From positions 23,607 through 87,606 of the forward strand of contig JALUYA010000007.1 in the NCBI GenBank assembly GCA_027018875.1: a stretch of DNA of 64,000 nucleotides, in the 5' to 3' direction. Both the position numbers and the translations under genes were made by a program. This DNA is from Gammaproteobacteria bacterium (lineage in GTDB: Bacteria; Pseudomonadota; Gammaproteobacteria; JAKDMP01). The notes beneath the pieces were generated by a model, which was not told where the DNA came from, ran no database searches, and saw only the letters and a program-made list of their open reading frames with translations. Positions 6,753-56,816 of the stretch are shown here, one piece after another (position 1 is the stretch's first letter; every line of letters begins with the position of its first letter).

Positions 6753-7273
6753 ACCGGTCGTTGCGACGGCTTACCGAGTCGCTTGTCATGTTGTCCCTGG
6801 TGGGTATACTCACGGGCTGTGGGGATGGCGGGATGGCGCGCCTGAGGGCTTGGGTGGCACAGGTAGATAAGCGCCCGGCGGGAAAAATTCTCCAGGTGCC
6901 GCAACCTATCTCTTATCATGCCTTCGTGTATCGGGACGAATCGCTGCGTTCACCATTTATTCCGGTGGTACATTCCAGCCGCAGAGTGCGCCCTAATTTC
7001 CATCGCCAAAAGCAATACCTGGAACGATTTCCGCTCGATGCCCTCAGCCTGGTCGGTGAATTGACTTTCGGGGGCAAGACCTATGCCCTGATCGAGGACC
7101 CCAAAGGAATGGTGCATCATGTAGTCATCGGTAATTACCTGGGGCAGAATAATGGTCGGATTATGGCCATATTGCCAGGCGAGATTCGTATCAGGGAAAT
7201 TGTTTCCAATGGGGCAGGAGGTTGGCAAAAGAAGATTACCTCGCTCTCGTTGAGTCAGAAACCGGGAGGTTAG
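6749..7273 (+). CDS. pilP: Type IV pilus assembly lipoprotein PilP
   Basis: 174 aa. Lipobox LTGC near the N-terminus. Position in the operon. Confidence 0.8.
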   Translation: MNRSLRRLTESLVMLSLVGILTGCGDGGMARLRAWVAQVDKRPAGKILQVPQPISYHAFVYRDESLRSPFIPVVHSSRRVRPNFHRQKQYLERFPLDALSLVGELTFGGKTYALIEDPKGMVHHVVIGNYLGQNNGRIMAILPGEIRIREIVSNGAGGWQKKITSLSLSQKPGG

Positions 7274-7277
7274 TATT

Positions 7278-9503
7278 ATGCGCGGGATTAAATTCATATT
7301 TACGGCTGCCCACGGCCGAACGGGTTCGGCGCATACAAACGTGCGTGGTGGATATGAATCGGGTGGCAGGATTGGGGCGATTGTTTTGCTGCTGCTGTTG
7401 AGCTTGGTATCCATCTATGCGGTGGCTGCTCCAACTCCGGTGCGTAAACTCAAGGCGATTCAGACTATCGCATTGCCGGGAGGAGGGGTGCGGGTCGATT
7501 TGCAGTTAAGCCAGACACCCACGAAACCATTGAGTTTCAGTGTAGATCGACCTGCCATGATTGTCCTGGATTTGCCCGATACACACCTGGCCAAACCGAT
7601 ACGGCGCAGCAATATCAATCTGGGCGATTTGACGGCGGTGGAAACCGCGGCGGCCGATGGCCGTACTCGGGTGGTTCTAAGATTGGTCTCCATGTCTCCA
7701 TACAAGACCCGAATTTCTGGGAACCATGTTTATGTCACTATTGGTGCGCTCGTCAAAGTTGCCTTACAGGCAAGAAGTGGTGCCACCAGAACCTTTGGCC
7801 CCGTTTCGGGACAACATATTGTAAACAGCCGGACCAATACCGTGACGAGCCTCCGGTTTCATCGCACGCAATCCGGGGCCGGCCGTGTTTTGATCGGGCT
7901 TTCAAGCCCATCGGCCAGTGGAAATGTCAACCAGGAAGGGGATCGGGTGGTGGTGCGTTTCCCAGGGGTGATGCTACCGAAGCGATTACAGGAACGTCTC
8001 AAGGTTAGTGATTTTGCAACTCCGGTAGATACCATTACCGCCCGGCAAACAGCGGCCGGTGCCGAGGTTGTGGTCAAGGGAAAAGGATCATTCGATCAGC
8101 TTGCATTTCAGACCAACAAAACTTTTGCGCTGGAGCTTAATCCGGTCAATGAGCAACGGCTTGCGATCGAGGGCAAGAAGCGTTATACCGGAAAACGCTT
8201 AACACTAAATTTTCAGAAGATTCCGGTAAGGGCGATACTTCAGATACTTGCTAAGTTTACGGGGAAAAATATTGTAGTGTCGGGAGGTGTTAATGGCGAT
8301 ATTACCTTGCGGCTGCATAATGTTCCTTGGGATGAGGCGCTGGCGATTATTCTAAGGTCGCAGGGTCTGGCGATGAAAAAGATCGGCAATGTGCTCATGA
8401 TTGCGCCGGCGGCCGAGTTCGCACGCCAGGAGCAGCAGCAACTGCAAGTGCAAAGCCAGATGCAGAAATTGGCACCACTGCAAACCGCCTATATGCAGAT
8501 TAATTACGCCAAGGCCGAAAATCTGGCGAAACTGATCAAATCGCAAAAAAGCACGCTACTGTCACCCCGGGGGACGGTGACAGTTGATCCACGTACCAAT
8601 ACATTAATCGTTCACGATACCGCGGCGCATATCGGGCAGGTTGGGAAATTGGTACATGTGCTTGACATTCCCGTGCGTCAAGTTCTTATCGAGTCGCGCA
8701 TCGTTATTGTACAGAACAACTTTGAGCGGGATTTGGGGGTGCGTTTCGGCGTATCCGGTTTGCACCAGGGGCCGAACAGCGTTATCTCTGTCGATGGCAG
8801 CGCGATTGGCAACAACAATATGTTGGCCAGTTTGACCAACCCGACTGGAACCGGAACCGGTGGCAGCAATCCTGGGAAAGGTACCTATGTCTATCCTCAA
8901 CTGAGCAATCGGTTGAATGTCAATATTCCCGTCACGAATCCGGCCGGGCAGTTTGCAGTGGCGATTCTAAGCGGTAATTTTCTAGTCGACCTGGAACTTT
9001 CCGCATTGCAGGCCGAAGGCAAGGGCGAGGTGGTTTCCAGTCCGCGGGTGATAACCGCCAACCAGCAGAAGGCCACCATTGAGCAAGGGGTGGAAATCCC
9101 TTACCAGAATTCCACCTCAAGCGGGGCAACTTCGGTACAGTTCAAAAAGGCCGTGTTAAGTCTCCAGGTGACGCCTCAGATCACGCCGGATAACCGGATT
9201 CTGATGAATATTGAGGTGCATAATGACAGCGTCGGTAAGTATGTTCCGACTACCAACGGCGGACAGGTTCCCAGCATCAATACCCGTACGGTTACCACCC
9301 AGGTTTTGGTGGATAACGGGGATACGGTTGTGCTCGGAGGTATTTATCAGACCACGCGCAACAAAACGACCAACAAGGTTCCGTTGTTGGGCGACATCCC
9401 CCTGCTTGGAGTGCTTTTCCGCAATACCAAAGTGGTCAATAATAAGGTTGAATTATTGGTTTTTGTGACTCCCAAGATTCTTGCCGCCAATCTCTCCCAG
9501 TAA
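7278..9503 (+). CDS. pilQ: Type IV pilus secretin PilQ
   Basis: 741 aa. AMIN/N-domains and a C-terminal secretin domain (VLVDNGDTVVLGGIYQ, LLGDIPLLGVLF). Confidence 0.9.
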   Translation: MRGIKFIFTAAHGRTGSAHTNVRGGYESGGRIGAIVLLLLLSLVSIYAVAAPTPVRKLKAIQTIALPGGGVRVDLQLSQTPTKPLSFSVDRPAMIVLDLPDTHLAKPIRRSNINLGDLTAVETAAADGRTRVVLRLVSMSPYKTRISGNHVYVTIGALVKVALQARSGATRTFGPVSGQHIVNSRTNTVTSLRFHRTQSGAGRVLIGLSSPSASGNVNQEGDRVVVRFPGVMLPKRLQERLKVSDFATPVDTITARQTAAGAEVVVKGKGSFDQLAFQTNKTFALELNPVNEQRLAIEGKKRYTGKRLTLNFQKIPVRAILQILAKFTGKNIVVSGGVNGDITLRLHNVPWDEALAIILRSQGLAMKKIGNVLMIAPAAEFARQEQQQLQVQSQMQKLAPLQTAYMQINYAKAENLAKLIKSQKSTLLSPRGTVTVDPRTNTLIVHDTAAHIGQVGKLVHVLDIPVRQVLIESRIVIVQNNFERDLGVRFGVSGLHQGPNSVISVDGSAIGNNNMLASLTNPTGTGTGGSNPGKGTYVYPQLSNRLNVNIPVTNPAGQFAVAILSGNFLVDLELSALQAEGKGEVVSSPRVITANQQKATIEQGVEIPYQNSTSSGATSVQFKKAVLSLQVTPQITPDNRILMNIEVHNDSVGKYVPTTNGGQVPSINTRTVTTQVLVDNGDTVVLGGIYQTTRNKTTNKVPLLGDIPLLGVLFRNTKVVNNKVELLVFVTPKILAANLSQ

Positions 9504-10020
9504 GGCCGGGGACGATCGTCCGATTGCTCTTGTCGGTTTACCGGGGGTGGGAAAATCCACCTTGGGCGCCTTATTGGCGGAGCAGTTGGGATGGGAGGTT
9601 CGTGATACCGACGCTCTGCTGGAGTCGCGGATGGGTTGCCGTATTTCCGACTATGTGGCATCCAGGGGATGGGCTGTCTTCAGGCATGAGGAATCTTGCC
9701 TCCTGAGCGAAGTAGTCGGTTTTCACCGGAGCGTGCTTGCAACCGGTGGCGGGATAGTAGAAAAGGAAGAAAATCGCCGCCTGCTCGGTACGCGAACCCG
9801 GGTGGTTTGGTTGCGCGCCGGCAGTGCAACTCTACTTGCTCGTCTGGGGGAGAATGGAGATGACCGTCCTCTGCTTCGTGATGATCCGGATCGGAATCTG
9901 CGGGAACTTGCGTTGCGTCGTAACCGCTGGTATGCGGAACTGGCGGAGTGGGTGGTTGAGACGGACCGGGGTTCATTTCGCTCTCTCGTTCAGCAGATAA
10001 TCACCCACTTCGGATTGTGA
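9481..10020 (+). CDS. aroK: Shikimate kinase
   Basis: P-loop LVGLPGVGKST and overall similarity to E. coli AroK. The start overlaps the pilQ 3' end by 23 nt. Confidence 0.9.
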   Translation: MPPISPSKAGDDRPIALVGLPGVGKSTLGALLAEQLGWEVRDTDALLESRMGCRISDYVASRGWAVFRHEESCLLSEVVGFHRSVLATGGGIVEKEENRRLLGTRTRVVWLRAGSATLLARLGENGDDRPLLRDDPDRNLRELALRRNRWYAELAEWVVETDRGSFRSLVQQIITHFGL

Positions 10021-10030
10021 ACCGCCGACA

Positions 10031-11116
10031 GTGAAAATTTTATGCCAACCCGGGCTTGGGTACCCGGTTTATGTGGGTGATAAAGGCGTGAATGAGCAAA
10101 TCAACCGGTTGATCGGTAAACGTTCTGCTCTGTTGGTTACCGACGAAAATGTGGCGCGATCACAGCGGAACGTATTACGTGATCAGCTTTCCGGCTTCCG
10201 GCTGGAGACCCTGGTGCTGCCTCCCGGCGAGGAACAGAAAAAACTGGAAGGTTGGTCTCGGATTTTAGATGCCCTGGTCAACGGTCATTTTCACCGTGAT
10301 GCGGTGCTTATCGCCTTTGGGGGGGGGGTTATCGGGGATTTGGCAGGGTTTGCCGCCGCTTGTTATCAGCGCGGCATCGACTGGATCGCCGCTCCGACCA
10401 CTCTGCTGGCTCAGGTGGATGCAGCGATTGGAGGGAAAACGGCGGTGAATCATCCCGCCGGGAAAAATCTTATTGGGGCCTTCCATGATCCGATCGCGGT
10501 ATGGATTGACCCGACATGGCTGCAGACCCTGCCACAACGTGAATACCTATCCGGTTTTGGTGAAGTGATCAAGTACGGCTTGGGATTCGATGCGGAGTTG
10601 TTTGCCTGGCTGGAGGCGCATGCCTCCGCCCTGGCCCAGCGGGACAGGGATTTTCTCGCGGCAATGATTCCGCGGGCCGTGGCGATTAAACTTGCGGTTG
10701 TAGCCCGGGATCGAACCGAAAAAGGCCCACGTGCACTATTAAATCTGGGGCATACTTGGGGGCACGCGATCGAGACCACCCTGGGCTACGGAACCTGGCT
10801 GCATGGCGAGGCCGTTGCCTCGGGTTTGGTCACCGCGGTACGGCTTTCCATTGCACGTGAACGAGTACCAGCGCGGCTGCTGGAGCGGCTGCTGCGGGTA
10901 CTCCAACGGTTGGGATTGCCAAGTACTTGGCCTGACACGATCCAGGTCGAGGATTTGCGCACAGCGCTTGGCCTGGATAAAAAAATTCTGAATGATCAAC
11001 TGCGATTCATTGGCCTGGGCGCCTGCGGCAGAGCGGAAATATGGGACGATGTGAGCCGGGCCGAGGTCGATGCCCTACTTGAGCGGGGGTATTCTCCGCC
11101 GTCATCCGGGACTTGA
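10031..11116 (+). CDS. aroB: 3-dehydroquinate synthase (GTG start)
   Basis: GGGVIGDLAGFAAACYQRGI, PTTLLAQVDAAIGGKTAVNHPAGKNLIGAFHDP match E. coli AroB. Confidence 0.9.
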   Translation: MKILCQPGLGYPVYVGDKGVNEQINRLIGKRSALLVTDENVARSQRNVLRDQLSGFRLETLVLPPGEEQKKLEGWSRILDALVNGHFHRDAVLIAFGGGVIGDLAGFAAACYQRGIDWIAAPTTLLAQVDAAIGGKTAVNHPAGKNLIGAFHDPIAVWIDPTWLQTLPQREYLSGFGEVIKYGLGFDAELFAWLEAHASALAQRDRDFLAAMIPRAVAIKLAVVARDRTEKGPRALLNLGHTWGHAIETTLGYGTWLHGEAVASGLVTAVRLSIARERVPARLLERLLRVLQRLGLPSTWPDTIQVEDLRTALGLDKKILNDQLRFIGLGACGRAEIWDDVSRAEVDALLERGYSPPSSGT

Positions 11117-11165
11117 TGTGGGACTGGTACAATTTCCCTCTTTAATGAGGGGGGGATACATCTCC

Positions 11166-11876
11166 ATGTCGCCTGAGTCCTTGCGGGAGCGGCTGATTTT
11201 TGCACTCGATGTGCCTTCGCTAGTGGAGGCGCGGGGCCTGGTCGAGCGGCTTGGCGATGCTGTCGATTTTTACAAGGTTGGGCTGGAACTGTTCACGGCA
11301 GGTGACGCGGTGGGTTTCGTGCGTCATCTGAAGCATGCCGGCAAACGGGTGTTCGTGGATTTGAAACTTTTCGATGTTCCGGCAACCGTCGCCCGTGCGG
11401 TGGCGCGGCTTGCCGCGCTAAAAGTGGATTTTATTACCGTGCATGGTAATCAGGCCATGATGCAGGCTGCGGCCGAGGCCAAGTCTTCTAGCCGGGTTCT
11501 GGCGGTCACCGCCTTGACCAGCCTGGACGCCGGGGATCTTGCCGATCTCGGGTTTCAGTGTGATATCACCCGACTGGTGGTATCGCGGGCGGAAAGAGCC
11601 ATGGAGGCGGGCCTGGACGGGGTTGTCGCCTCGGGGCGGGAGGCTGCTTGTTTGCGCCAGGCGGTCGGGCCCCGGCTCCTGATCGTAACCCCCGGTATTC
11701 GCCCGGTACTCAATCGGTGCGAGGATGATCAGAAACGGATCATGAGCCCCGCCGAGGCAATGAGTGCCGGGGCCGATTACCTGGTGGTCGGTCGTCCCAT
11801 CCGCGATGCACCCGATCCGCAACGGGCCGTAGAAACCATTCTGAGCGCCATGTCCGCGGGAGTCGAGGGCTTATGA
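11166..11876 (+). CDS. pyrF: Orotidine 5'-phosphate decarboxylase. Start placed at MSPESLRE (listed ORF starts at 11070).
   Basis: DLKLFDVPATVA, LVTPGIRP, DDQKRIMSP, GADYLVVGRPI motifs. GA-rich RBS upstream of 11166. Confidence 0.85.
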   Translation: MSPESLRERLIFALDVPSLVEARGLVERLGDAVDFYKVGLELFTAGDAVGFVRHLKHAGKRVFVDLKLFDVPATVARAVARLAALKVDFITVHGNQAMMQAAAEAKSSSRVLAVTALTSLDAGDLADLGFQCDITRLVVSRAERAMEAGLDGVVASGREAACLRQAVGPRLLIVTPGIRPVLNRCEDDQKRIMSPAEAMSAGADYLVVGRPIRDAPDPQRAVETILSAMSAGVEGL

Positions 11877-23559: not shown

Positions 23560-24545
23560 GGATCTATGACTTTGTCAGCGACGCTACTGGCGATGGTCGC
23601 CGGCTCAAGTGCCTGTGAAGGTGTGTGCCGAGTTCATGCGCCGCGGCATTCACATCGAGGTGCTCGCTCGGTGCGCCCGATGTAAAGCGCGCGCTGGAGG
23701 CCCTGAGCTACGCGGGGCTCGATGAGAAGAGCTTCGGGCGCGGCGGCCACCACTACGTCTCGGTGCTGCACGACATCAGCGGGCGGCGAGTGATCGAGGC
23801 GGTCCCGGGGCGCACCCGCAAAGGCGCCGATACGCCACGGGCGACGCTTGCCGAGGCGCACGGGCGTCGCTCGCGGCGGTGGCAATGAACATGTTGGAGC
23901 CCTATATGGGCGCCACGCGCGGGGCCGCCCCCGAGGCGGAGATCGGGCACGACAAGTTCCACTGTGCCAAGGAGCTGAATAAAGCGGTGGATCGGGTGTG
24001 TCGGGGCGAGCACCGGGCTCTGGAGGTCCAAGGGCGCGAGATGCTCACCCGCACGAAGTGCCTGTGGCCTGAAGAGCCCCGAGCGCTGGACGAAGCGCCA
24101 GCGCGAGCATCTCCCCTCAAGCTCAACAGCCTAAAGTGGGGCCCTGCCTGGGCGATCAAGGAGGCGTTTGCCGCCTTCTGGGGCTATCGCTATGCCGCCT
24201 CGGCACGCAAGTTCTTCGAGCGCTGGGACTCCTGGGCCACCCACTCGCGCCTGCCCCCGATCATCGCCGCCGCCAAGACCCTCAAACGCCACCTGCCGGG
24301 GCTACTCGCCTATGTTAAACACCGCATCACTAACGCCACCGCGGAGGGCACGAACGGGACCATCCAACTGCTCAAGGCCAACGCCCGCGGCTACCACCGC
24401 TTCGCCCAGTATCGCACCGCCATCCTCTTCCATTGCGGCAAGCTCGATCTTTACCCCGCAGGCTGCGCATCATGACTCCTCGGCAACCGACCCACACGAA
24501 AGTCGGAATAGCCATTGACTGGTGCAGTGAGCATGGGCTTGACAA
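23560..24545 (+). mobile_element. Remnant of an ISL3-like insertion sequence (5'-truncated; the transposase C-terminal two-thirds only, with a frameshift)
   Basis: Two adjacent ORFs in different frames (23625..23888, 23879..24475) together reproduce the central and C-terminal parts of ISL3-family transposases. The N-terminal zinc-finger third is missing. Confidence 0.6.
23625..24475 (+). pseudogene. ISL3-family transposase, truncated and frameshifted near 23880
   Basis: GLDEKSFGRGGHHYVSVLHDISGRRVIEAVPGR, then KWGPAWAIKEAFAAFW, WATHSRLPPI, ITNATAEGTNGTIQLLKANARGYHRF, AILFHCGKLDLYP (recalled DDE_Tnp_ISL3 signature). Confidence 0.7.
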
Positions 24546-24548
24546 CTC

Positions 24549-25073
24549 TTATAACGCCTTGATCAGCATGTGTACGAGCTTGCCATCGGCTTTCTGGGTG
24601 CCTACGGGTCTAAATCCCAGGCTTTCGTGAAATCGCAGTGAGATGTCGTTGCGAGGTTTGAGGTTGACTTCGCAGGCGAGGATGGGTTTATTGGACTTGC
24701 GGGCCCAGTCGGCAAAGGTTTGATACAAATTTTTTCCTAATCCTCGGCGGGTGTATTCCGGGTCGATTACTACCCGGTCGATGTAGGCAAAGCGGGGGTA
24801 ACGGTCGCCGAAGAACCGATAGTTGGCGCTGTTGTAATCGGCATTTTCCACGAGCCCCAAAAGAAACCCTACCGGATCTTGTCCGGCCAGTACGATACGA
24901 GTCCAGGATGATATGACAAACAATTTTTCCAGTGCGGTTTTTGTCAGGGAGTTAACAGCGGGTTTGGCGGTATTGTTGAGTCGTAGCAAGATGTCGATCC
25001 ATTCGGAGCGGTACCGGAGGAAGGAGATTTTCTTGCTATCGGAGAGGGTGGCTCTTATCCGGACCTTATCCAT
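24549..25073 (-). CDS. GNAT-family N-acetyltransferase (its start overlaps the typA stop; co-transcribed)
   Basis: Acetyl-CoA binding region RRGLGKNLYQ and the GNAT fold pattern. 174 aa. Confidence 0.75.
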   Translation of the reverse strand: MDKVRIRATLSDSKKISFLRYRSEWIDILLRLNNTAKPAVNSLTKTALEKLFVISSWTRIVLAGQDPVGFLLGLVENADYNSANYRFFGDRYPRFAYIDRVVIDPEYTRRGLGKNLYQTFADWARKSNKPILACEVNLKPRNDISLRFHESLGFRPVGTQKADGKLVHMLIKAL

Positions 25074-27635: not shown

Positions 27636-28684
27636 GGCTCTTGGTCTCCCGGGATGATCGTCTGGGGGACTTTATGCTTGCGTGGCCGGCCTTGCAGCTA
27701 ATCCATCGTAACCTGCCTGAGGCGAGCCTTAGCGTGTTGGCCGGGGCCGGTGCCGCGGCGTTGGCCCCCCTGTGCCCGGGGTTGAACCAGGTGATCACGG
27801 TGCCACGGGATGGCGGGGAACTGGCCCGCGCGCGGCGGTTGGCCGGGCATTTGCGTCCCTACCGGTTTAGCGCCGCCCTGGCGCTGTTTTCCCGCTTCGA
27901 CCTGGCCTTGGGCTTGGCGCTTGCCCGAATCCCCTTGCGGTTGGCGCCGGCAACCAAGGCGGCGCAGGTTTTCTACACCCACCGGCTGCGGCAGCATCGT
28001 TCCCGTTCCGAGAGGCCGGAGTATGTCTATAATCTGGAGCTTGCCGAGCACTTTCTGGCCCTGCTCGGGGTGCGTGATCCGGTACGTCCCGAGCCACCTT
28101 TTCTCCGCTTTGACTCCGCCGTGGTGAGCCGTTCCCGCCTGGATCTGGCCGCTCGGCTGGGCTTCGACGAGCAGCTTCCCGTGGCGATGCTGCACCCCGG
28201 GCATGGCGGCTCCGCACCGCGCCCCCCAGTGGCGTTGTTCGTTGAGATTGCCCGGGAACTTGCGGCTGAGCGGGCCGTCGTGCTGATCTCGGAAGGCCCC
28301 GCGGATACCGCCGCGGTTGCGGAGTTGGACCAGGCGCTCGGCGGCGTGGCACACAAGGTGTTCCGATCCGTTTCGGGTTTGATCGATTACGCCAGGTGTC
28401 TCGCGCCCGTGGATCTGTTTATCAGTGGCTCCACCGGACCTTTGCATATCGCCGGGGCGTTGGATGTGCCTACCGTTGCCTTTTATCCTCGCCGCCGTTC
28501 GGCTACGGCACTGCGTTGGCAAACCTTGAACCGGCCCGAGCGTCGGCTTGTGTTTATGCCTCCCGCCGAGGCACCGGAGAACGCCTTTGATGCCCTGGAT
28601 GCCGGGCAAGTTGCGAGGCGGATCAGGGGGTTTTTTCGGGCGGTCCGGGATCATTCCGCCGCAGCCACAGGTCCGCGTACTTGA
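27632..28684 (+). CDS. Glycosyltransferase family 9 (LPS heptosyltransferase-like). Start at ATG 27632 (ATGA overlap with dedA; RBS AAGGAGG).
   Basis: MRLLVSRDDRLGDFMLAWPAL N-terminus and a C-terminal FISGSTGPLHIAGALDVPTVAFY region typical of GT9. Confidence 0.8.
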   Translation: MRLLVSRDDRLGDFMLAWPALQLIHRNLPEASLSVLAGAGAAALAPLCPGLNQVITVPRDGGELARARRLAGHLRPYRFSAALALFSRFDLALGLALARIPLRLAPATKAAQVFYTHRLRQHRSRSERPEYVYNLELAEHFLALLGVRDPVRPEPPFLRFDSAVVSRSRLDLAARLGFDEQLPVAMLHPGHGGSAPRPPVALFVEIARELAAERAVVLISEGPADTAAVAELDQALGGVAHKVFRSVSGLIDYARCLAPVDLFISGSTGPLHIAGALDVPTVAFYPRRRSATALRWQTLNRPERRLVFMPPAEAPENAFDALDAGQVARRIRGFFRAVRDHSAAATGPRT

Positions 28685-29402
28685 CGAAGGTCGAATGGGC
28701 CGAAAGCAGGGCGAGAAGGAGACCGGCGCGTCCATCCAGAAACCCCGTCTTGAGCAGGTAGATGCGCAGGAAACATCCCAAACCGTGGCCGAGTCCGGCG
28801 GCCAGCGAGGCTTTGTCGCCGTTGCGATCGCGCATCTCCGCCCAGGCCGAGGCGTAACGGGCGGACTTGACCAGGTAATCGTTCAGATCGCGATAGGTAT
28901 GATGATATAGCGGTGATTTAAGTTGCCGGACCCGAACCTGCGGATCGAGCACGACTTTTTCATGTACCAAGGCGTCGTCATAGCGGCCCCGTTCGCGGTG
29001 ATAAAGCCGTACTACGGGATCGGGCCACCAGCCCCCATGGTTCAAATAGCGCCCGAAGGCCCAGGTGCGGCGGGGCAGAGTGTAGGCTAGGTGGGGGTGA
29101 TTTTCGTTGACTGCAGCCCGAATTTCTTCGGCCAGGGCCGTGCTGATCCGTTCGTCGGAGTCGATCATCAGGATCCATTCGTATCGGGCCTCGGCCTGGG
29201 CGCGGCGGCGTTGGATTCCGAAACCCCGCCAGTCGGGGGCATGGACCACCCGGGCACCATGCGCCTGGGCAATCCCGATGCTGGCATCGTGGCTGCCGCC
29301 GTCATAGACTAGAATCTCATCGGCGAAGCCGAGTGAGTCCAGGCAGGCTCCGAGTCTGTCCGCCGCGTTGTGGGCGATGACGACGGCCGAGAGTTGGGGC
29401 AT
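28623..29402 (-). CDS. Glycosyltransferase family 2 (LPS core WaaE/KdtX-like). Start placed at MPQLSAVVIAHN.
   Basis: LSAVVIAHNAADRL, DGGSHD, IDSDE (DxD-type) motifs. Convergent 3' overlap with the GT9 gene. Confidence 0.75.
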   Translation of the reverse strand: MPQLSAVVIAHNAADRLGACLDSLGFADEILVYDGGSHDASIGIAQAHGARVVHAPDWRGFGIQRRRAQAEARYEWILMIDSDERISTALAEEIRAAVNENHPHLAYTLPRRTWAFGRYLNHGGWWPDPVVRLYHRERGRYDDALVHEKVVLDPQVRVRQLKSPLYHHTYRDLNDYLVKSARYASAWAEMRDRNGDKASLAAGLGHGLGCFLRIYLLKTGFLDGRAGLLLALLSAHSTFVKYADLWLRRNDPGPPEKTP

Positions 29403-29454
29403 GTGGTACCAGGTAACTGCGGTACCATATATTGTAAGTACCTTGATGTAGCTG

Positions 29455-29724
29455 GTGCGTTTCCAGATGTTCCAACGTATTGTCGGAATGATTGTTACCA
29501 TGGTTGGGGTAATCCTTGCGCTCATCGTCGGATTCTGGGCGCTCCTGCTGCTGGCGTTGTTTGCCCTGCTTACCTTTAGCATCTACCTGGTGCGAGGACG
29601 CATAAGAACGGGCCGCCGAAGGTCTGCAGAGGATGTGATCGAGGGGGAGTATGAGGTCGTGAACAATAACGATAATGACCCATCCGGGCGTAGGCGCCAC
29701 AAGGATGAGAAACCGCCTCGATGA
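29455..29724 (+). CDS. Possible small membrane protein (one or two TM helices, basic tail), immediately upstream of dusA with a 4-nt overlap
   Basis: ORF with a strongly hydrophobic core (IVGMIVTMVGVILALIVGFWALLLLALFALLTF). No homology recognised. Confidence 0.35.
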   Translation: MRFQMFQRIVGMIVTMVGVILALIVGFWALLLLALFALLTFSIYLVRGRIRTGRRRSAEDVIEGEYEVVNNNDNDPSGRRRHKDEKPPR

Positions 29725-30719
29725 GCTCGAACGCAGCCGGAGTACTACACCGCCGGTGGCTTTCTGTAGCGCCGATGTTGAACCGTACCGATCGGCATTT
29801 TCGTTATCTGGTGCGCTTAATTAGTCGCCGCACCTGGTTGTACACCGAGATGGTCACGGCCCAGGCATTGCTGCATGGCAATCCTTCTCGGTTATTGTCG
29901 CATGCAGGGGTAGAGGCGCCACTTGCGGTACAGCTGGCAGGGTCGGATCCGGCTGCGCTGGCCCGTGCCGTTATCGTTGCCATGGAGTTTGGATTCGATG
30001 AAATCAACCTAAATGTCGGTTGCCCGAGCCCCCAGGTGAGCGCGGGCCGTATGGGTGCCCGCCTGATGGCGGAGCCGCAGCTGGTGGGGGAATGCGTTGC
30101 GGCAATGTGCGCGGTAAGTAATTTGCCGGTTACCGTCAAGACCCGGCTGGGAATTGATGAGTATGATGATTTCGAGTTTCTTTGCCGATTCGTCGAGACG
30201 GTTGCGGCGGCCGGTTGTCGCACGTTCATCATCCATGCGCGCAAGGCCTGGCTGAAGGGACTCGATCCGAAGCGCAACCGTACGGTTCCGCCGCTGGATT
30301 ACGCTTGCGTCAGGGCGCTCAAGGCGGCTTATCCCCGGCTTGAATTTATTCTCAATGGTGGATTACAGGATCTTGCCATGGCCCGTGAAGCCATTGCATC
30401 GGGCCTGGATGGGGCCATGATCGGACGTGCGGCCTATGCTCGTCCCTGGTGTCTGGCTGCGGCCGATCGGATTTTCTATGGGGAGCATGTTGCCATGCCG
30501 AGCCTTGCTGAAGTACTCGACGCCTACCTCGTGCATATCGGGAGAGAGCATGCCGCCGGGACTCCCCTGGGACCGATGCTGCGCCATATTCCCGGACTTT
30601 TTACCGGGTTATCCGGGGCGCGTGCGCTACGCGCCCGGATCGGTGCCCAGGCTGGATCCGGCTCGCTTGATTCGCTTCGGGAGGCCCTGGCCCCTGTATT
30701 GAATGCGCAAGCCGCCTAG
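29721..30719 (+). CDS. dusA: tRNA-dihydrouridine synthase A
   Basis: LSVAPMLNRTDRHFRYL, EINLNVGCPS, FIIHARKAWLKGL. 332 aa. Confidence 0.9.
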   Translation: MSSNAAGVLHRRWLSVAPMLNRTDRHFRYLVRLISRRTWLYTEMVTAQALLHGNPSRLLSHAGVEAPLAVQLAGSDPAALARAVIVAMEFGFDEINLNVGCPSPQVSAGRMGARLMAEPQLVGECVAAMCAVSNLPVTVKTRLGIDEYDDFEFLCRFVETVAAAGCRTFIIHARKAWLKGLDPKRNRTVPPLDYACVRALKAAYPRLEFILNGGLQDLAMAREAIASGLDGAMIGRAAYARPWCLAAADRIFYGEHVAMPSLAEVLDAYLVHIGREHAAGTPLGPMLRHIPGLFTGLSGARALRARIGAQAGSGSLDSLREALAPVLNAQAA

Positions 30720-30727
30720 TACTATCT

Positions 30728-31549
30728 ATGCCGAAACGCAATTCCCTGAAAACCAGTTTGGCCGATCGCGCCGATCGTTATCGACTATACGAGCAATCGG
30801 TTCAGGATCCGGTAGCCGAGGTCGAACTGTTGCAGGATTTTTATCGCCGTGCTCGAGGGCGGGCGGCCCGGAGCCTGCGGGAAGATTTTGCCGGAACCGC
30901 GCGGGTGGCCTGCGAGTGGGTATCCGGCAACACTCGTCATCGGGCGGTTGCGGTAGACAATGATCCGCGGGTGTTGCAATGGGGTCGAGAGCACAACTAC
31001 CAACGACTCAAACCCGGTGCGCGGCGGCGAATCGAGCTGGTTTTGGCGGATGTGCTTGAGGCGCCACGTGGCCCTTTCGATCTGATCACCGCGATGAATT
31101 TTAGTTATTGGTTGTTCCGGGATCGGGCGAGCCTGCGTCAATACTTTGCCTCGGTGAAGGCATCACTCGAGCGCAACGGGCTGTTTCTGCTCGATGCCTA
31201 TGGCGGCTACGATGCTTACCGGATGCTCAGGGAGCGGCGTAAAGTAAGAAATTTTACCTACATTTGGGAGCAGGCTGACTTTGACCCGGTGAGTTCCTGC
31301 GCCGTTTGCCACATTCATTTTCGTTTTCGTGACGGTTCCAGCCTGAGACGCGCCTTCAGCTATGAATGGCGACTGTGGACCTTACCCGAAATCCGGGAGT
31401 TGCTGGCCGAGGCGGGTTTTGCCGAATCCCGGGTGCTATGGCAGGGGACCGACGTGCGCACCGGGCAAGGAAACGGGGTGTTCCAACCCACCGAACGCGG
31501 TGATCCCGACCCGGCCTGGATTGCCTATATCGAAGCTGAACCCTATTGA
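30728..31549 (+). CDS. Class I SAM-dependent methyltransferase-like protein (motif I degenerate)
   Basis: Rossmann-like layout with VAVDNDPRVL and FDLITAMNFSYWLF (motif II/III region). 273 aa. Confidence 0.55.
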   Translation: MPKRNSLKTSLADRADRYRLYEQSVQDPVAEVELLQDFYRRARGRAARSLREDFAGTARVACEWVSGNTRHRAVAVDNDPRVLQWGREHNYQRLKPGARRRIELVLADVLEAPRGPFDLITAMNFSYWLFRDRASLRQYFASVKASLERNGLFLLDAYGGYDAYRMLRERRKVRNFTYIWEQADFDPVSSCAVCHIHFRFRDGSSLRRAFSYEWRLWTLPEIRELLAEAGFAESRVLWQGTDVRTGQGNGVFQPTERGDPDPAWIAYIEAEPY

Positions 31550-31559
31550 GAGAAAGGCC

Positions 31560-32678
31560 GTGAACGATCAGGAAAAAGGGAGCTTGTTGACCCGGGGGGT
31601 GGTTCGCTTGCCCGAGCCACTCAGGCTTTATCGGGGGGGTGAACTGCAAGAGGTGGACGTTGCCTATGAGTCTTGGGGGAACTTGACGGGAGGCAACCTG
31701 ATTCTGCTGTTTACCGGGCTTTCCCCGAGTGCTCATGCGGCCTCATCCCTAGTGGATCGTTCCCAAGGCTGGTGGGAAGGAATGATCGGGCCGGACAAGC
31801 CTATCGATACCCGCCGCTGGTGTGTCGTGTGTCTGAACTCGCTTGGGAGTTGCTTTGGATCCACCGGGCCCGCCTCGATCAATCCCCGGAGCGGTGAACC
31901 TTACCGGCTCGATTTTCCCGCCTTGGCGGTCGAAGATATTGCCCGGGCGGGCTACGCGGCCTGCCAGGTCTTAAAATTGCCCCGTCCCCGGATGGTGATG
32001 GGACTTTCGCTGGGAGGCATGAGTGCGTTGGCGTTTGCGGCCCAGTTTCCGGAGGCGGTACCGAACCTGGCGATCATTTCCGCCGCGGCGCATGCCTGGC
32101 CGTTCGCGATCGCCATTCGTTCGTTGCAGCGCGAAGCTATCCGCAGTGATCCGGCTTGGGAATGCGGTTACTATGCGCCGGGCAAGGCGCCGGTGAATGG
32201 CATGCGCCTGGCCCGCAAAATTGGAATGCTTTCGTATCGCTCGCCCGAGGAGTGGCGTCAACGGTTCGGTCGATCGCGGGTGCGCCAGGATACTTCACGT
32301 GGGGTGGCTTCGTTTGGAATCGAATTTGAGGTTGAGAGCTATCTTGAGGCCCATGCCGATCGATTCGTCGGGCGGTTCGATGCGAACAGCTACCTTTATC
32401 TGTCACACACAATGGATCTGTTTGACGTTGCCGAGCACGGGAATGGTGATGTCATCGAGGTGTTTAGGCGGCTGCAGACCGAGCAGGCGCTGATAATCGG
32501 CGTTGCATCCGACCTGTTGTTTCCCCCCGAGCAGCAACGTCAACTGGCGCGGTGGATGCGCCAAGCCGGAATTCGTGTTACATGCGAAATTCTCCCCAAT
32601 CTGCAGGGGCATGATTCTTTTTTAATCGATATCGAACGGTTTGGCGGGGTGATCAGCGGGTTTTTGGACGGGCTATGA
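31560..32678 (+). CDS. MetX-family alpha/beta-hydrolase acyltransferase (homoserine O-acetyltransferase paralogue). GTG start at 31560, just after the upstream stop.
   Basis: Colinear with MetX: GxSxG-type GLSLGGMSALAFAA, FDANSYLYLSHTMDLFD, GHDSFLID. A second, canonical metX lies at 51440. Confidence 0.75.
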   Translation: MNDQEKGSLLTRGVVRLPEPLRLYRGGELQEVDVAYESWGNLTGGNLILLFTGLSPSAHAASSLVDRSQGWWEGMIGPDKPIDTRRWCVVCLNSLGSCFGSTGPASINPRSGEPYRLDFPALAVEDIARAGYAACQVLKLPRPRMVMGLSLGGMSALAFAAQFPEAVPNLAIISAAAHAWPFAIAIRSLQREAIRSDPAWECGYYAPGKAPVNGMRLARKIGMLSYRSPEEWRQRFGRSRVRQDTSRGVASFGIEFEVESYLEAHADRFVGRFDANSYLYLSHTMDLFDVAEHGNGDVIEVFRRLQTEQALIIGVASDLLFPPEQQRQLARWMRQAGIRVTCEILPNLQGHDSFLIDIERFGGVISGFLDGL

Positions 32679-34333
32679 GCCCCGAACTCGCGGCCGCTCT
32701 TGAACGCCAGGCAGGGGATCCCCGGCTACGGCGGTGGCTGCGCCGGGAGCGCCTGTGTTCCGGCTCGGCCAACGATTGCCTGGAGGTTTCCACTGCATTG
32801 CATCGACAAGGGGATTATCGTGCCGCGGCCTTGTGGATGTTGCGGGCCTGCCGACTTGTTGCCGCGGAGGGGACGAACGATTCCTGGCGCTATCGACTGG
32901 CAAATGCGTTGCGATGCGCGGGCCGTAATCGTCTCGCCCGGATGATCCTCGAGGATCTGGTTCAGCGTTATCCGCAGTGGGCCGAACCGGCCCGGAGCCT
33001 GGCCTGGCTGCATCGGCGGGCGCGCCGTACTGGAGAGGCGGGGGCGACGCTCGAGCGCTTGGCCCAAGCCGCCGGCTATGACCCTCGGATCGTTTTGGGA
33101 TCAAGTGGATTTCTGCAGGAGATGGGACTGTACCCGGCAGCCGAGCGTCTCGTTTCCGCTGCACTTCGTTCTCGTCCCGTGGCCGCCCTGTATGCCGAGC
33201 GGGGTACGATTCTCGCGAGTCTCGGCCGTTTTAAGGAAGCTGAAGATACCTTTTCCCAGGCCTTGGCACGCGATCCCAATCAGGCGGGGGTCTGGTTGAG
33301 GCTGGCCATGATGCGGTCCTGGAACGATGCGGCAACCAGTCCGCTGGGCTTTTTTCAGGCCGCACTCGAGCGTTCCGACCTGAAACCGGACACGCGAACA
33401 ACCCTCTACTTCGCCTTGGCGAAAATCGAAGATGATCTCGGTCGTTTTGAATCGGCTTTTTACCATGCCAAACAGGGTAATATTCGGCGGGCCGGAGAGG
33501 TCCGGTTTGATCGCAAGGCCTGGGCAGCCTGGGAACAGTCCCTGTACACGGCGTTACCGATTGGCTTTTTCGATCACCGACGGGAGGTTTCGGTATCATC
33601 CGAGGCCCCGGTATTTATCGTCGGTATGCCTCGAAGCGGCACGACCCTGGTGGAGCGGCGCCTGGCGGGGCATCCCGCACTCGAGGGCGTAGGTGAACTG
33701 GAGACGGTCGAGGCGGTCGGACTGAGCCTCGCGGGGGCGGCGGGACTGCCCGCAGGGCTGGTGAATGTTCGCCGCGAGGCACTGACCGCGGCCGTCCATG
33801 ATTGGCGTGCCCGTCTTCCCGAGACCGTGCCGGAAGGCGCTCGGATCGTCGATAAAAACCCGCTTAATTTTCTTCACCTGGGGTTGATTTCTCTATTGTT
33901 CCCACGGGCCACTATTATCCGGATACGCCGTTCGCCACTGGATACGGCGGTATCGCTTTACCTGAACCACTTTGCCCACGCCCGGATGAGTTTCTCCTAT
34001 CGTTGGGACGACATCGCCTGGATGTACGCCATGTATCAACGGTTGATGGCTCACTGGCAGCGGGTGGTTCCCATCCCGATCTACGAACTGGATTATGCTT
34101 GCCTGGTCGCCGAACCCGAAGCAGAGTTGCGTCGATTACTGGATTTTCTCGGGCTGGAATGGAACCCGCGTTGCCTGGAAGCCGTGGCGGACCAGGGCGT
34201 TATCGCTACGGCAAGCCTGTGGCAGGCACGCCAACCGGTTTATACCCATGCGGTGGGACGGGCTCGGCACTACGCGCCCTGGCTCGATCCGCTGCGTGAG
34301 GCGTTCGAACGCGAGGGCGTAGAAACGGGGTGA
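32675..34333 (+). CDS. TPR-repeat protein with C-terminal sulfotransferase domain
   Basis: N-terminal TPR-like helical repeats, then the PAPS-binding 5'-PSB motif IVGMPRSGTTLVERRL and a sulfotransferase-like tail. 552 aa. Confidence 0.7.
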   Translation: MSPELAAALERQAGDPRLRRWLRRERLCSGSANDCLEVSTALHRQGDYRAAALWMLRACRLVAAEGTNDSWRYRLANALRCAGRNRLARMILEDLVQRYPQWAEPARSLAWLHRRARRTGEAGATLERLAQAAGYDPRIVLGSSGFLQEMGLYPAAERLVSAALRSRPVAALYAERGTILASLGRFKEAEDTFSQALARDPNQAGVWLRLAMMRSWNDAATSPLGFFQAALERSDLKPDTRTTLYFALAKIEDDLGRFESAFYHAKQGNIRRAGEVRFDRKAWAAWEQSLYTALPIGFFDHRREVSVSSEAPVFIVGMPRSGTTLVERRLAGHPALEGVGELETVEAVGLSLAGAAGLPAGLVNVRREALTAAVHDWRARLPETVPEGARIVDKNPLNFLHLGLISLLFPRATIIRIRRSPLDTAVSLYLNHFAHARMSFSYRWDDIAWMYAMYQRLMAHWQRVVPIPIYELDYACLVAEPEAELRRLLDFLGLEWNPRCLEAVADQGVIATASLWQARQPVYTHAVGRARHYAPWLDPLREAFEREGVETG

Positions 34334-35765
34334 TCGCCTCGCGGGTTGCGGTAATGGCCGTTTCCAGGGGCACTTGGTAGCGTGCAGTCCCGTTGATCAG
34401 TACCGCAAAGGCCCCCCAGCCACCGGTGGCAAAACGCAGGTAGCCGGCCAGTGCAAATACACTGTGAGGCTGATTCAGCGAACCGGTTTTAACCGCGATT
34501 CGACGCATCCACATCGGATCCGGGGCAAATTTGAGCAGCCCGGATGGGGTGTGGGCCGGCACGGTCAGGGTGCCGAGAAAAGTGGGTAACAGGCCGAAGC
34601 GGCGGTAAAGGACCTGGAGCAAGGCGACGACGTCTCTGGCACTGGCGCGGCTGTCGGTGCTCAGACCACTTCCGGAGTAGAGTTCCAGCGCGGGACGATG
34701 GTCTCGCAGGACGGGAGCGAGCGCTTCCAGCCTGCGTGCACGGCGAGTAAGCAGTGTGCCCGCCGCGGCCAGGCTGAGTGGGGGGGGCCGCCGGCGGTGC
34801 AGCAGGTCCAGGGCCAGGGTGTCGGCCATGAAGTTGTTACTCCAGGTCAGCATGCGCCGAATTAGGATCCACAGAGGTTGGCTTTCGGTACGGGCCAGTG
34901 TTTTGCCGGCCGGGGTGGAGTGGAATCGAATTTGCACCTTGCCGGTGATATGAACCCCGGCCTGGGCGAGAAAGGCCCGCAGAACTTCGCCGCTGAAGCG
35001 CAGTGGATTGGCGACGGCGCGATAGTAACGCCTTGGGGGTGCGCCGGCAGGCACATTTCCGGCCACCTGGAAAATATTATCGGTATTGTTGCTTTGCCTG
35101 CGCGTTACGACGATTTGCCATGGGCGCCCGGGGGAAACGGTTTCGATTCGCCCCCGAATGACGAGGCCGGGCAGGGGGAAGGGCTCTATTGCCAGCCGGG
35201 CGGGATGCCCGGGGCGGCTTGCCGGCATGACCACGAGCGCCGCCGTGCCGAAATCCACCACGGAGGCGCCGATTCGCGCGTTATAGGCATGGTTGCTCAT
35301 TGCCTCTCCGCGGCACCGGTCCCGGGTCGTGCAGCCGAGGCGTCCGAATCGACTTGCATCCATTACCAGGTCGCCGGCCACGCGGTGAATGCCGCGTTCG
35401 TGAAGATTCCTAGCCAGTTCCCATAGTCGGGCATCGGTAAGCGCCGGATCCCCGCCACCCTGAAACACGAGATTTCCTTCCAGGATCGTTCCGCGGATCG
35501 GAGCAGAACTGGTGAGTCGGCTGGTAAACCGGTGCTGTGGTCCCCACTGTGCGAGCGCGATCGCGGCGAGGTACAGCTTGCTGACCGATGCCGGTGGCAG
35601 TGTTTGACCAGGATTGAGCGCGGCAAGAATTTTACCGTTATCCAGGCGAACGACTAGGGAACTGACTCGGGCTCCCGCCTTTTGTAGCGCCAGTAAGGGC
35701 GCCATTGGCGGCGCTGCGATCGCCGGTAGGGCCAGAATCAGCCCCAAGAGAACACTAGCCCTCAT
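34206..35765 (-). CDS. dacB: D-alanyl-D-alanine carboxypeptidase/endopeptidase (PBP4, peptidase S13). Start placed at MRASVLLGL; the C-terminal 40 aa overlap the sulfotransferase gene antisense and may not be real.
   Basis: Signal peptide, SVSKLYLAA (SxxK) and overall PBP4-like domain order. Confidence 0.7.
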   Translation of the reverse strand: MRASVLLGLILALPAIAAPPMAPLLALQKAGARVSSLVVRLDNGKILAALNPGQTLPPASVSKLYLAAIALAQWGPQHRFTSRLTSSAPIRGTILEGNLVFQGGGDPALTDARLWELARNLHERGIHRVAGDLVMDASRFGRLGCTTRDRCRGEAMSNHAYNARIGASVVDFGTAALVVMPASRPGHPARLAIEPFPLPGLVIRGRIETVSPGRPWQIVVTRRQSNNTDNIFQVAGNVPAGAPPRRYYRAVANPLRFSGEVLRAFLAQAGVHITGKVQIRFHSTPAGKTLARTESQPLWILIRRMLTWSNNFMADTLALDLLHRRRPPPLSLAAAGTLLTRRARRLEALAPVLRDHRPALELYSGSGLSTDSRASARDVVALLQVLYRRFGLLPTFLGTLTVPAHTPSGLLKFAPDPMWMRRIAVKTGSLNQPHSVFALAGYLRFATGGWGAFAVLINGTARYQVPLETAITATREAITPFLRPRVRTPHAADRARARSAEPVPPHGYKPVGVPATGLP

Positions 35766-50108: not shown

Positions 50109-52512
<2,404 letters not shown>

Positions 52513-52525
<13 letters not shown>

Positions 52526-53601
52526 AGCGATGGAGAACGAGGGTATTTCTCGCCGGCATGGGTGGGCGGGTCGGGAGTGCCTTGTGCGAACAGCTCGAGG
52601 CGCTGGGTGGGATGGGCCGGACTACCTCTTTCCCCGCTGAATTTTGCGGGGGAGCCAATCGTCGGTGGGTTCAGTGGAGGGGTGTAGATCCGGTTCCGCG
52701 AACACCCGGGGACTGGTCTGGAATTATCGATCGGCTCGCGAGGTTGGACCGGGTTTTGTTTGTCGATTGTACGGCCAGCGAGGAGGTCTCGGCATTGTAC
52801 TCGGAGTTACTTGCCGCCGGTATCGGCATTGTCACGGCAAACAAGTTGGCGCTGAGCGGGCCTCTGGATGGGTATTTGCAGCTGCATCGACTTGCCGCTG
52901 AGCAGGGTGTCCCATTGCGCTATGAAACTACCGTGGGGGCTGCCTTGCCGGTACTGGACTCGCTTGCCGCACTGAGAGCACGCGGCGAGAAGTTACTGTG
53001 TCTCGATGCCGCGCTTTCGGGGACACTGTCGTTCCTATTCTCGGGTATCAACCGGGGAGAGCGCTTTTCCGCAGTGTTGCGGGAGGCATATCGGCGGGGA
53101 TTGACCGAACCTCACCCGGTGGAAGATCTGCTGGGCGCTGACCTGGTGCGCAAGCTGGTGATTTTGCTGCGTGAGTCGGGGGTTATGATCGAACCAGAGC
53201 AGGTTCGGCTGGAGCCGATTTTACCTGCAGGTTGTAGCTGGGCCCATGATCCGGAGCGATTTTTCGAACAATCCCAGGTGCTTGATGAACTGTGGCAAGC
53301 CCGTGCGGCGCGGGGCCCGCTGGCGGCACTGGCACGCTGGAATTTGCAAACCGCCAGTGTCGAAGTCGTCCAGGTAGAATCGGATTCGCCGTTTGCCCGC
53401 CTGGGCGCCGGGGCCAACCTGGTCTGTTGCCATACCGAGCATTATGCTGCGCAACCTCTGGTGATTTCCGGGCCGGGCGCCGGATCCGCTATCACCGCCG
53501 CCGGGGTGATCAGTGATGTGATCCAGGCGGCTTACCGCTTCGATCGCTGCATTCCCGGCGTCTCGACTGCGCTTCGGGTCGGTGCCGATGCGCCGATGTG
53601 A
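52513..53601 (+). CDS. hom: Homoserine dehydrogenase (short form without ACT domain)
   Basis: Rossmann N-terminus (VFLAGMGGRVGSAL), catalytic region LSGTLSF, and C-terminal GPGAGSAITAAGVISDVI typical of HSDH. Confidence 0.75.
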
Positions 53602-56746: not shown

Positions 56747-56816
56747 GTAAAAATCCGGTAAAACAAGGCGCCCGATTTTACCGGGATTACGCCGCTCCTT
56801 GCAGCATCGGGATAGT

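Follow-up and report, generated by a model that had tools for sequence, protein, structure and literature searches.

What does a second MetX-family gene do when it is packed between a methyltransferase-like gene and a sulfotransferase gene? The question is raised by a 64,000-nucleotide stretch (the window) of a 98-kb metagenome contig from a gammaproteobacterium. Here, one MetX paralogue (MetX1) stands in a methionine cluster, while the other (MetX2) lies between a gene for a methyltransferase-like protein (MT) and a gene for a protein that joins tetratricopeptide repeats (TPR) to a sulfotransferase domain, with glycosyltransferase genes close by (Table 1). A sequence-only reading of the window had proposed an uncharacterized module for O-acylation, sulfation, and methylation, with a link to lipopolysaccharide (LPS). 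Our analysis points elsewhere: MetX2 is probably an L-serine O-acyltransferase of the MetX-G3a/DcsE group that serves cysteine synthesis, and the three genes probably do not form one pathway. Most likely, MetX2 is a predicted L-serine O-succinyltransferase, an enzyme of a known kind that takes the first step of cysteine synthesis.

By domain, MetX2 belongs to the alpha/beta hydrolases (PF00561), and it passes the MetX model NF001209 (387.7 bits; cut-off, 331). It falls short of TIGR01392 (343.4 bits; cut-off, 500) and also of NF047916, the succinyl-specific model (289 bits; cut-off, 560). Its closest solved structure is DcsE, at 51% identity (3VVL, 385 bits; 3VVM, 378 bits); homoserine acetyltransferases scored 195 to 216 bits. 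In the alignment of 3VVL to MetX2, a Gly-Leu-Ser-Pro turn falls at chain residues 72 to 75, presumably residues 52 to 55 of native DcsE if the chain carries the standard 20-residue tag. At two positions of this turn, 3VVM, which we take to be the homoserine O-acetyltransferase (HAT)-like DcsE mutant of Oda et al. 2013, departs from 3VVL, with Gly and Pro changed to Ala and Gly. MetX1 scored higher against 3VVM than against wild-type DcsE in 3VVL, and the opposite was true for MetX2. The turn reads T-G-L/M-S-P-x-A-H in all 119 closest MetX2 homologues and H-A-L-T/S-G in MetX1 and the reference homoserine acetyltransferases. MetX2 shares with DcsE an oxyanion-hole turn of the type TGLSPxAHAAS. 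DcsE of Streptomyces lavendulae is an L-serine O-acetyltransferase (PMC10214352).

MetX proteins fall into groups that differ in activity (PMC9506716, after Bastard et al. 2017): G1 has HAT activity, G2 homoserine O-succinyltransferase (HST) activity, G3a both HST and serine O-succinyltransferase (SST) activity, G3b HST activity, and G3c SST activity, and G4 is inactive. The residues associated with SST activity are Gly-Leu-Ser-Ala/Pro at 52 to 55 (Xanthomonas campestris numbering), Ser-Leu/Met at 149 to 150, Arg183 of the Frateuria enzyme, and Asp360 of the Xanthomonas enzyme (PMC9506716). All four features are present in MetX2, as Gly53-Leu-Ser-Pro56, Ser150-Leu151, Arg187, and Asp352. Arg187 (in AIRSLQRE) corresponds to Frateuria Arg183, a position occupied by Asn, Ser, or Gln in homoserine acetyltransferases and MetX1; Asp352, next after His351, corresponds to Xanthomonas Asp360. 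The Ser-Leu pair differs from the Ser-Tyr pair tied to homoserine specificity in G3b. Because MetX1 and the homoserine acetyltransferases also carry Ser-Leu, Ser-Met, or Ser-Phe, this feature separates G3a from G3b only. The catalytic triad of MetX2, Ser150 (GLSLGG), Asp318 (SDLLFP), and His351 (GHD), aligned and was conserved in the 119 homologues.

The same assignment came from a neighbor-joining (distance) tree of 25 sequences over 362 columns, with 200 bootstraps and validated references from Data S3 of PMC9506716. MetX2 and its homologues grouped with the SST of Halomonas anticariensis (SST_HALAF; 56% identity) at 100% bootstrap and with all G3a SSTs (Frateuria, SST_FRAAD; Stenotrophomonas, SST_STEMA; Xanthomonas, SST_XANCP) and DcsE at 80%; identity to the latter enzymes was 49 to 51%. 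MetX1, which is 39% identical to MetX2, fell in the G1/G2 clade (84% bootstrap). MetX2 has the same length as the G3a SSTs, is monophyletic with them, and shares their GLSP turn, Ser-Leu/Met pair, Arg, Asp, and catalytic triad; it differs from them in coming from an uncultured gammaproteobacterial family. It therefore agrees with the G3a group in every sequence-level feature checked and lacks the turn of homoserine acetyltransferases. The sequence-only reading had suggested that this paralogue might not be a duplicate methionine gene and had named serine acyl transfer among the specificities to which MetX enzymes have diverged; both the tree and the active-site residues point in this direction.

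By its sequence, MetX1 is of the classical homoserine O-acetyltransferase type. Its best solved relatives are 2VAT, 2B61, and 2PL5 (about 250 bits); its TIGR01392 score of 411.6 bits lies below the cut-off of 500 and does not decide between acetyl and succinyl transfer. The gene overlaps metY by 4 nt and the homoserine dehydrogenase gene by 13 nt; no gene resembling metW comes after it at the locus, in agreement with the earlier description of a metY-metX-hom operon without metW. H. anticariensis and X. campestris likewise carry a second, methionine MetX (METXS_HALAF and METXS_XANCP). In contrast with these G3a hosts, the methionine paralogue in the window is of the G1-like acetyltransferase type and not G2 or G3b. 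The cluster's homoserine dehydrogenase looks more like the C-terminal domain of bifunctional ThrA than like the stand-alone Hom families, and all of its NCBIfam matches were far under cut-off. As an observation on naming, the NCBIfam equivalog NF001209, "homoserine O-acetyltransferase MetX," is passed by both paralogues, and public sources name GLSP-type homologues in the same way. The serine-type MetX clade thus looks systematically misannotated as homoserine O-acetyltransferase.

We inspected 80 metagenome loci with relatives 49 to 69% identical to MetX2, only one of which (L127) represents the window's own family. The serine-type turn was present in 71 of the 80 (GLSP in 67, GLSA in 3, and GMSP in 1). 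Of the 63 loci with sufficient flanking sequence for this comparison, 13 had a cysteine synthase gene no more than 200 nt away, upstream in all 13 and on the same strand in 12; a representative passed the cysK model TIGR01139 (405 bits). Of the 68 loci with a long enough flank for the dioxygenase comparison, 18 had a type I cysteine dioxygenase gene no more than 200 nt downstream, and a representative matched PF05995 (44.7 bits). The two sets of loci are disjoint, so a cysteine-metabolism gene directly adjoins metX in 31 of the 80 loci. Other recurring neighbors were housekeeping genes (xseA, an M23 peptidase gene, ccmFGHI, and der). The repeated pairing of SST-type metX with cysK or a cysteine dioxygenase gene provides small new support for a role in cysteine metabolism.

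The dioxygenase pairing is an observation in its own right. The gene lies 3 to 190 nt 3′ of the SST-type metX, on the same strand, in 18 loci among L121 to L164, and also in L010 and L177. A synthesis gene is thus recurrently paired with a degradation gene, and never with cysK upstream.

The window also encodes a putative partner for MetX2. A cysteine synthase encoded two genes from the metY-metX1-hom cluster is 55 to 63% identical to eukaryotic Cys1a and 40% identical to CysK of the TIGR01139 type. Cys1a belongs to the O-succinylserine sulfhydrylase group (PMC9506716). The Cys1a-like synthase likely consumes the O-acylserine predicted for MetX2. Since both enzymes are encoded, the organism appears to hold both steps of the O-acylserine route beside metY-metX1-hom. 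The pair resembles Cys2 and Cys1a of fungi and animals, in which a MetX-family serine O-succinyltransferase is followed by a dedicated sulfhydrylase (PMC9506716). Cys2, however, belongs to G3c and MetX2 to G3a, and in the window the two genes are 21 kb apart and not co-transcribed.

In the proposed mechanism, MetX2 would follow the ping-pong mechanism of the MetX family. An acyl-CoA would acylate Ser150, with Asp318 and His351 completing the triad. The donor would most likely be succinyl-CoA, by homology with four characterized enzymes; acetyl-CoA is also possible. The acyl group would then pass to the hydroxyl of L-serine, giving O-acylserine, and a cysteine synthase, for which the Cys1a-like enzyme is the obvious candidate, would turn this intermediate into cysteine. 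Each sulfur amino acid would have a MetX of its own: methionine would be served by MetX1, working with MetY and Hom, and cysteine by MetX2.

What, then, are the two neighbors of metX2? The MT-like protein matched Pfam Methyltransf_25 at 23.2 bits, below the cut-off of 27, and all class I methyltransferase matches were subthreshold. Among the candidates scored, 4,314 were homologues, typically 50 to 60% identical across Gammaproteobacteria, with the invariant blocks LREDF-GT, NFSYW, DAYGG, FTYIWEQA, CHIH, and WRLWT. Motif I reads EDFAGTA (family consensus, EDFCGTA) and keeps one Gly of the canonical E/DxGxGxG. Because this unusual motif is conserved throughout a large family, it is a family trait and not a sign of decay; the suggestion that the gene is degenerate was therefore ruled out. 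A profile search of the PDB found the Pyrococcus methyltransferase 1WZN (E = 1e-16). An AlphaFold model (predicted local distance difference test [pLDDT] score, 82.8) has a class I, Rossmann-like methyltransferase fold with a beta-sheet cap. Its top Foldseek matches (E of about 1e-15) were 1WZN, PsmD, CcbJ, CypM, GSMT, and TylM1, and these closest folds, PsmD to TylM1, are small-molecule or peptide N- or C-methyltransferases. Asp77, Asp108, Asn124, and Phe125 do not vary within the family and, by alignment, fall where contacts with S-adenosylmethionine would be expected (an acidic residue at the end of strand 2 and motifs III and IV). The earlier statement that MT is not MetW-like agrees with a Pfam search that gave no hit for the MetW family (PF07021) at E ≤ 0.01.

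The neighborhoods of MT homologues were compared at 80 loci in genomes of named or binned Gammaproteobacteria, among them Chromatiaceae, Wenzhouxiangella, Lysobacterales, and Thiocapsa. MT adjoined a MetX gene in only two of them (L012 and L013), both from the window's own family. Elsewhere, uvrC-pgsA lay upstream in 15 to 16 loci, dusA lay upstream in 14, and a YgfZ-like gene (14 loci) or sdhCDA (11 loci) was nearby. We conclude that MT is an independent, widespread, conserved gammaproteobacterial gene whose modeled product is a class I methyltransferase of the small-molecule type. Separately, loci in which MT follows dusA include L014 to L016, L026, L027, L033, L042, L043, L054, L058, L063, and L077, and the dusA and pgsA partners might offer a guess at the substrate of MT (tRNA or phospholipid?).

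The third protein of the trio combines TPR (residues about 1 to 300) with a sulfotransferase domain (about 310 to 540) of the type that uses 3′-phosphoadenosine 5′-phosphosulfate (PAPS), with a match to PF13469 (Sulfotransfer_3; 143 bits) and the motif GMPRSGTTL; this is the architecture that had been read from the sequence before. Across 17 family members, the invariant elements were GMPRSGTT at 317 to 324 (G317, M318, and R320 to T323), Glu341, DKNP, and Arg419...Ser427. GMPRSGTT is the 5′-phosphosulfate-binding (5′-PSB) loop, and Arg419...Ser427 is the 3′-phosphate-binding (3′-PB) motif (Rx7S), so the PAPS-binding residues are kept on alignment. The best solved relatives were the tyrosylprotein sulfotransferases TPST2 and TPST1 (E = 1.6e-8; 21 to 24% identity). 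In the TPST2 segment CGEET, the second Glu, which we take to be catalytic Glu99, aligned with Glu341. In the structural model (pLDDT, 84.4), a TPR superhelix of about 300 residues precedes a TPST-like domain. Foldseek matched the N-terminal part to TPR superhelices, including those of OGT and SPY, and the C-terminal part to TPST1 and TPST2 (template modeling score, 0.55 to 0.63). No signal peptide was evident from the N-terminal sequence.

The protein thus resembles an intact, cytoplasmic, PAPS-dependent enzyme of the tyrosylprotein sulfotransferase type. It shares the 5′-PSB loop, the 3′-PB Arg...Ser motif, and the catalytic Glu with TPST1 and TPST2 and, like OGT and SPINDLY, carries a TPR superhelix at the N terminus, ahead of a transferase domain in the same chain. 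It differs from the TPSTs in its low identity and in being a cytoplasmic bacterial protein; that it sulfates proteins is inferred from its fold alone. The TPR arm probably serves to bring in the substrate, for which a protein or peptide is the most economical reading. Orthologues (44 to 51% identity; about 548 aa; about 35 clusters) are in many cases encoded on the contigs of the closest MetX2 and MT homologues. The sole more distant relative looked up, 40% identical (L094), has a different setting. There, three tandem TPR-sulfotransferase genes (6001 to 11655) lie beside a TonB-dependent receptor gene, with genes for a 2-oxoglutarate-Fe(II) oxygenase and a group II intron reverse transcriptase further upstream, a setting that is possibly more telling. 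A literature search on TPR-sulfotransferases found no characterized bacterial member. A 2010 comparative-genomics paper predicts operons for peptide hydroxylation and sulfation, with partners that differ from those of the trio. The family is large in bacteria, and the locus in the window gives no special handle on its acceptor.

The three genes are closely packed, and all three open reading frames (ORFs), the GTG start of metX2, and its 4-nt overlap with the sulfotransferase gene (ATGA, 32675 to 32678) were confirmed as first described. The GTG start matches both the gene call on the source contig and the N termini of homologues. The proposed coupling of MT to metX2 held in part: the spacing is tight, and there is no overlap. 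The MT stop codon (31547 to 31549) lies 10 nt ahead of the GTG, with the purine-rich GAGAGAAAGG between them. Of the upstream neighbors named earlier, dusA may share a transcript with the trio, of which it would probably be the first gene; it ends 8 nt before MT on the same strand. The glycosyltransferase genes do not belong to the same unit; GT2 lies on the minus strand and GT9 converges with it, which makes them separate transcription units. A promoter and terminator scan of positions 28500 to 35000 gave nothing above shuffled expectation, and the operon structure is therefore read from gene spacing only. On this basis, MT, metX2, and the sulfotransferase gene are probably co-transcribed, possibly including dusA.

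If the trio were a module, its genes should travel together. Every sulfotransferase orthologue looked up lies in the order GT9, GT2 (opposite strand), small ORF, dusA, MT, metX2, sulfotransferase gene, dacB, xseA. Among the 80 metagenome loci with MetX2 relatives, MT and sulfotransferase neighbors were found in one (L127). The trio was present at 63% MetX2 identity (L176) and gone at 61% (L177), where metX is followed by a cysteine dioxygenase gene, an M23 peptidase gene, and xseA. L013 has dusA, MT, metX2, dacB, and xseA without a sulfotransferase gene. No association of the trio in independent lineages was found among the loci examined for the MT, SST, or sulfotransferase families. Linkage to glycosyltransferase genes is likewise limited to one syntenic clade and absent for relatives of all three proteins elsewhere. 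Since the housekeeping flanks (dusA, dacB, and xseA) are equally syntenic in the clade, common descent explains the co-occurrence. metX2 would hold an old position near xseA, shared by many Gammaproteobacteria; dusA-MT is a pair also seen elsewhere; and the sulfotransferase gene would occupy the slot of the cysteine dioxygenase gene in the outgroup L177. MT and the sulfotransferase gene look like neighbors that metX2 has in one bacterial family only and not like parts of a new modification system. Co-occurrence across genomes, on which the proposed LPS-tied module depended, is confined to one clade, and the serine branch is already characterized as the entry to cysteine synthesis.

Several points weigh against a serine acyltransferase with unrelated neighbors. 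DcsE (51% identical to MetX2) uses acetyl-CoA and the G3a enzymes (49 to 56% identical) use succinyl-CoA, so the sequence does not decide the donor. G3a enzymes have been reported with some homoserine succinyltransferase activity, and a side role of MetX2 in methionine synthesis is therefore possible. The MT-metX2 gap was 2 to 20 nt in all family loci compared, and the ATGA overlap of metX2 with the sulfotransferase gene was kept in seven of eight family loci, the eighth having a 16-nt overlap. In the same genomes, identity was 44 to 51% for the sulfotransferase and 63 to 72% for MetX2. Tight packing and an overlap kept despite this divergence fit selection for co-expression and leave room for a functional link. 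Finally, the roles of MT and the sulfotransferase are inferred from fold alone.

One such link would be a dedicated O-acylation, methylation, and sulfation pathway for a small molecule or an envelope glycan, possibly tied to the LPS-type glycosyltransferases. It would account for gaps of at most 10 nt, an overlap conserved in the clade, a sulfotransferase with intact PAPS-binding and catalytic residues, an MT fold of the small-molecule type, and the presence of GT9 and GT2 nearby in all family members. We nevertheless consider it unlikely. Each of the three families mostly occurs without the others, the association is monophyletic and arose once within a block in which dusA, dacB, and xseA are equally conserved, and L013 lacks the sulfotransferase gene altogether. 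The GT2 gene runs the other way, and dusA stands between the trio and the glycosyltransferase genes; the LPS link was ruled out because these genes are on other transcription units. MetX2 is nested in a clade of characterized cysteine-pathway enzymes, and the operon has no transporter, flippase, or carrier gene. That the MT-SST-TPR-sulfotransferase operon is a real functional unit within the window's own gammaproteobacterial family is also quite improbable. If it were, the sulfotransferase or MT might act on the serine acyltransferase itself, or on a protein or metabolite in common, and so tie PAPS, the activated sulfate, to how much cysteine precursor is supplied; alternatively, the trio might make a serine-derived compound that is both sulfated and methylated.

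Other explanations concern MetX2 itself or its relation to MT. MetX2 could duplicate MetX1 as another homoserine O-acyltransferase, using either acetyl or succinyl groups. It passes NF001209, sources label its homologues homoserine O-acetyltransferase, and G3a is described with both activities (PMC9506716), but its failure against TIGR01392 and NF047916, its GLSP turn in place of ALT/SG, and its Ser-Leu pair in place of the Ser-Tyr of G3b make this reading improbable. Moreover, its relatives adjoin cysK or cysteine dioxygenase genes and not met genes, and a complete metY-metX1-hom cluster is already present in the window. An MT protein that stands in for MetW as an accessory to a MetX enzyme, encoded upstream rather than downstream, would recall the metX-metW pairs of Pseudomonas, Leptospira, and others. 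MetW is also a methyltransferase-fold protein encoded in metX-metW operons, and in all family members MT is packed against a MetX-family gene. Yet the order is reversed, the MetW match is missing, MetX2 is of the serine type, MT lacks a MetX neighbor in 78 of 80 genomes, and SST-type genes lack an MT neighbor in 79 of 80 metagenome loci. G3a enzymes were reportedly assayed by Bastard and colleagues as single purified proteins, and the list of MetX proteins with experimental validation includes them (PMC9506716). A MetW stand-in is therefore very unlikely, and MT was rejected as a MetW analogue, there being neither a family match nor linkage beyond the clade. Least probable, to the point of being barely credible, is a DcsE-like MetX2 that feeds a secondary-metabolite pathway of the cycloserine type with O-acetylserine. 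In its favor, no solved structure is closer to MetX2 than DcsE. The D-cycloserine cluster contains genes for an ATP-grasp ligase, a racemase, an arginase-like enzyme, and a heme hydroxylase. None of these partner types was among the scanned ORFs of the window, whose matches were housekeeping genes, and metX2 keeps a conserved core-genome position by xseA across many Gammaproteobacteria. DcsE, with acetyl-CoA as its donor, is encoded in an antibiotic gene cluster, whereas MetX2 is a core-genome protein nearer to the succinyl-CoA-using Halomonas enzyme. A serine acyltransferase for cysteine, set apart from its relatives by MT and TPR-sulfotransferase neighbors seen in only one of the 80 related loci, thus remains the preferred reading.

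Table 1. Genes discussed in the text, with positions in the 64,000-nucleotide window
Feature	Position	Strand	Remarks
GT2 glycosyltransferase gene	28623-29582	-	GT9 gene convergent with GT2
dusA (tRNA dihydrouridine synthase)	29721-30719	+	Pfam Dus, 234 bits
MT-like gene	30728-31549	+	273 aa; ORF confirmed at this position
MetX2 (MetX-like gene)	31560-32678	+	372 aa from GTG start
TPR-sulfotransferase gene	32675-34333	+	552 aa
metY (O-acetylhomoserine sulfhydrylase), MetX1 partner	50124-51443	+	TIGR01326, 688.8 bits
MetX1, homoserine O-acetyltransferase type, HALTG turn	51440-52525	+	NF001209, 378.6 bits
Homoserine dehydrogenase, stand-alone, third gene of cluster	52513-53601	+	NF006959, partial match, 255.8 bits
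Cysteine synthase, PRK10717/Cys1a-like	55757-56878	-	NF007989, 513 bits; cut-off, 387

The surroundings of the trio hold a few further features. The small ORF before dusA (29455 to 29724, plus strand) encodes 89 aa with a predicted membrane segment and ends 4 nt inside the start of dusA. It has a counterpart at the same place in family relatives (37 to 49% identity) and no Pfam match. Downstream, the 3′ ends of the sulfotransferase gene (plus strand) and dacB, which encodes PBP4 (minus strand), overlap convergently by 128 nt (34206 to 34333); in relatives the overlap is 0 to 44 nt. The PBP4 ORF listed from 36080 is probably overextended, the called gene start being 35765, with an 11-nt overlap with xseA. 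Domain scans took in most of the 52 large ORFs of the window. The rest of the window holds core housekeeping genes (gltA, pilMNOPQ, aroKB, hemE, typA, mfd, pyrG, sdhCDAB, acs, rlmN, and hisS). Just upstream of typA, in this otherwise core-genome region, lie a truncated ISL3-family transposase ORF (23879 to 24475, plus strand), which matches the C-terminal part of the Pfam model only, and an adjoining GNAT acetyltransferase gene (24549 to 25073, minus strand).

Together, these results indicate that MetX2, as judged from sequence, is a member, uncharacterized by assay, of a known and experimentally defined kind of enzyme and that automatic annotation has mislabeled it. MT and the sulfotransferase belong to uncharacterized families, and the locus shows no evidence of a new system. 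The main value of the analysis lies in the corrected functional call for MetX2 and in the linkage of its relatives to cysK and cysteine dioxygenase genes. This gene and thousands of gammaproteobacterial relatives carry the signature of a serine O-succinyl or O-acetyl transferase despite their homoserine label. If the labels are left uncorrected, metabolic reconstructions would miss the first step of cysteine synthesis in these uncultured bacteria and count a spurious second methionine gene.

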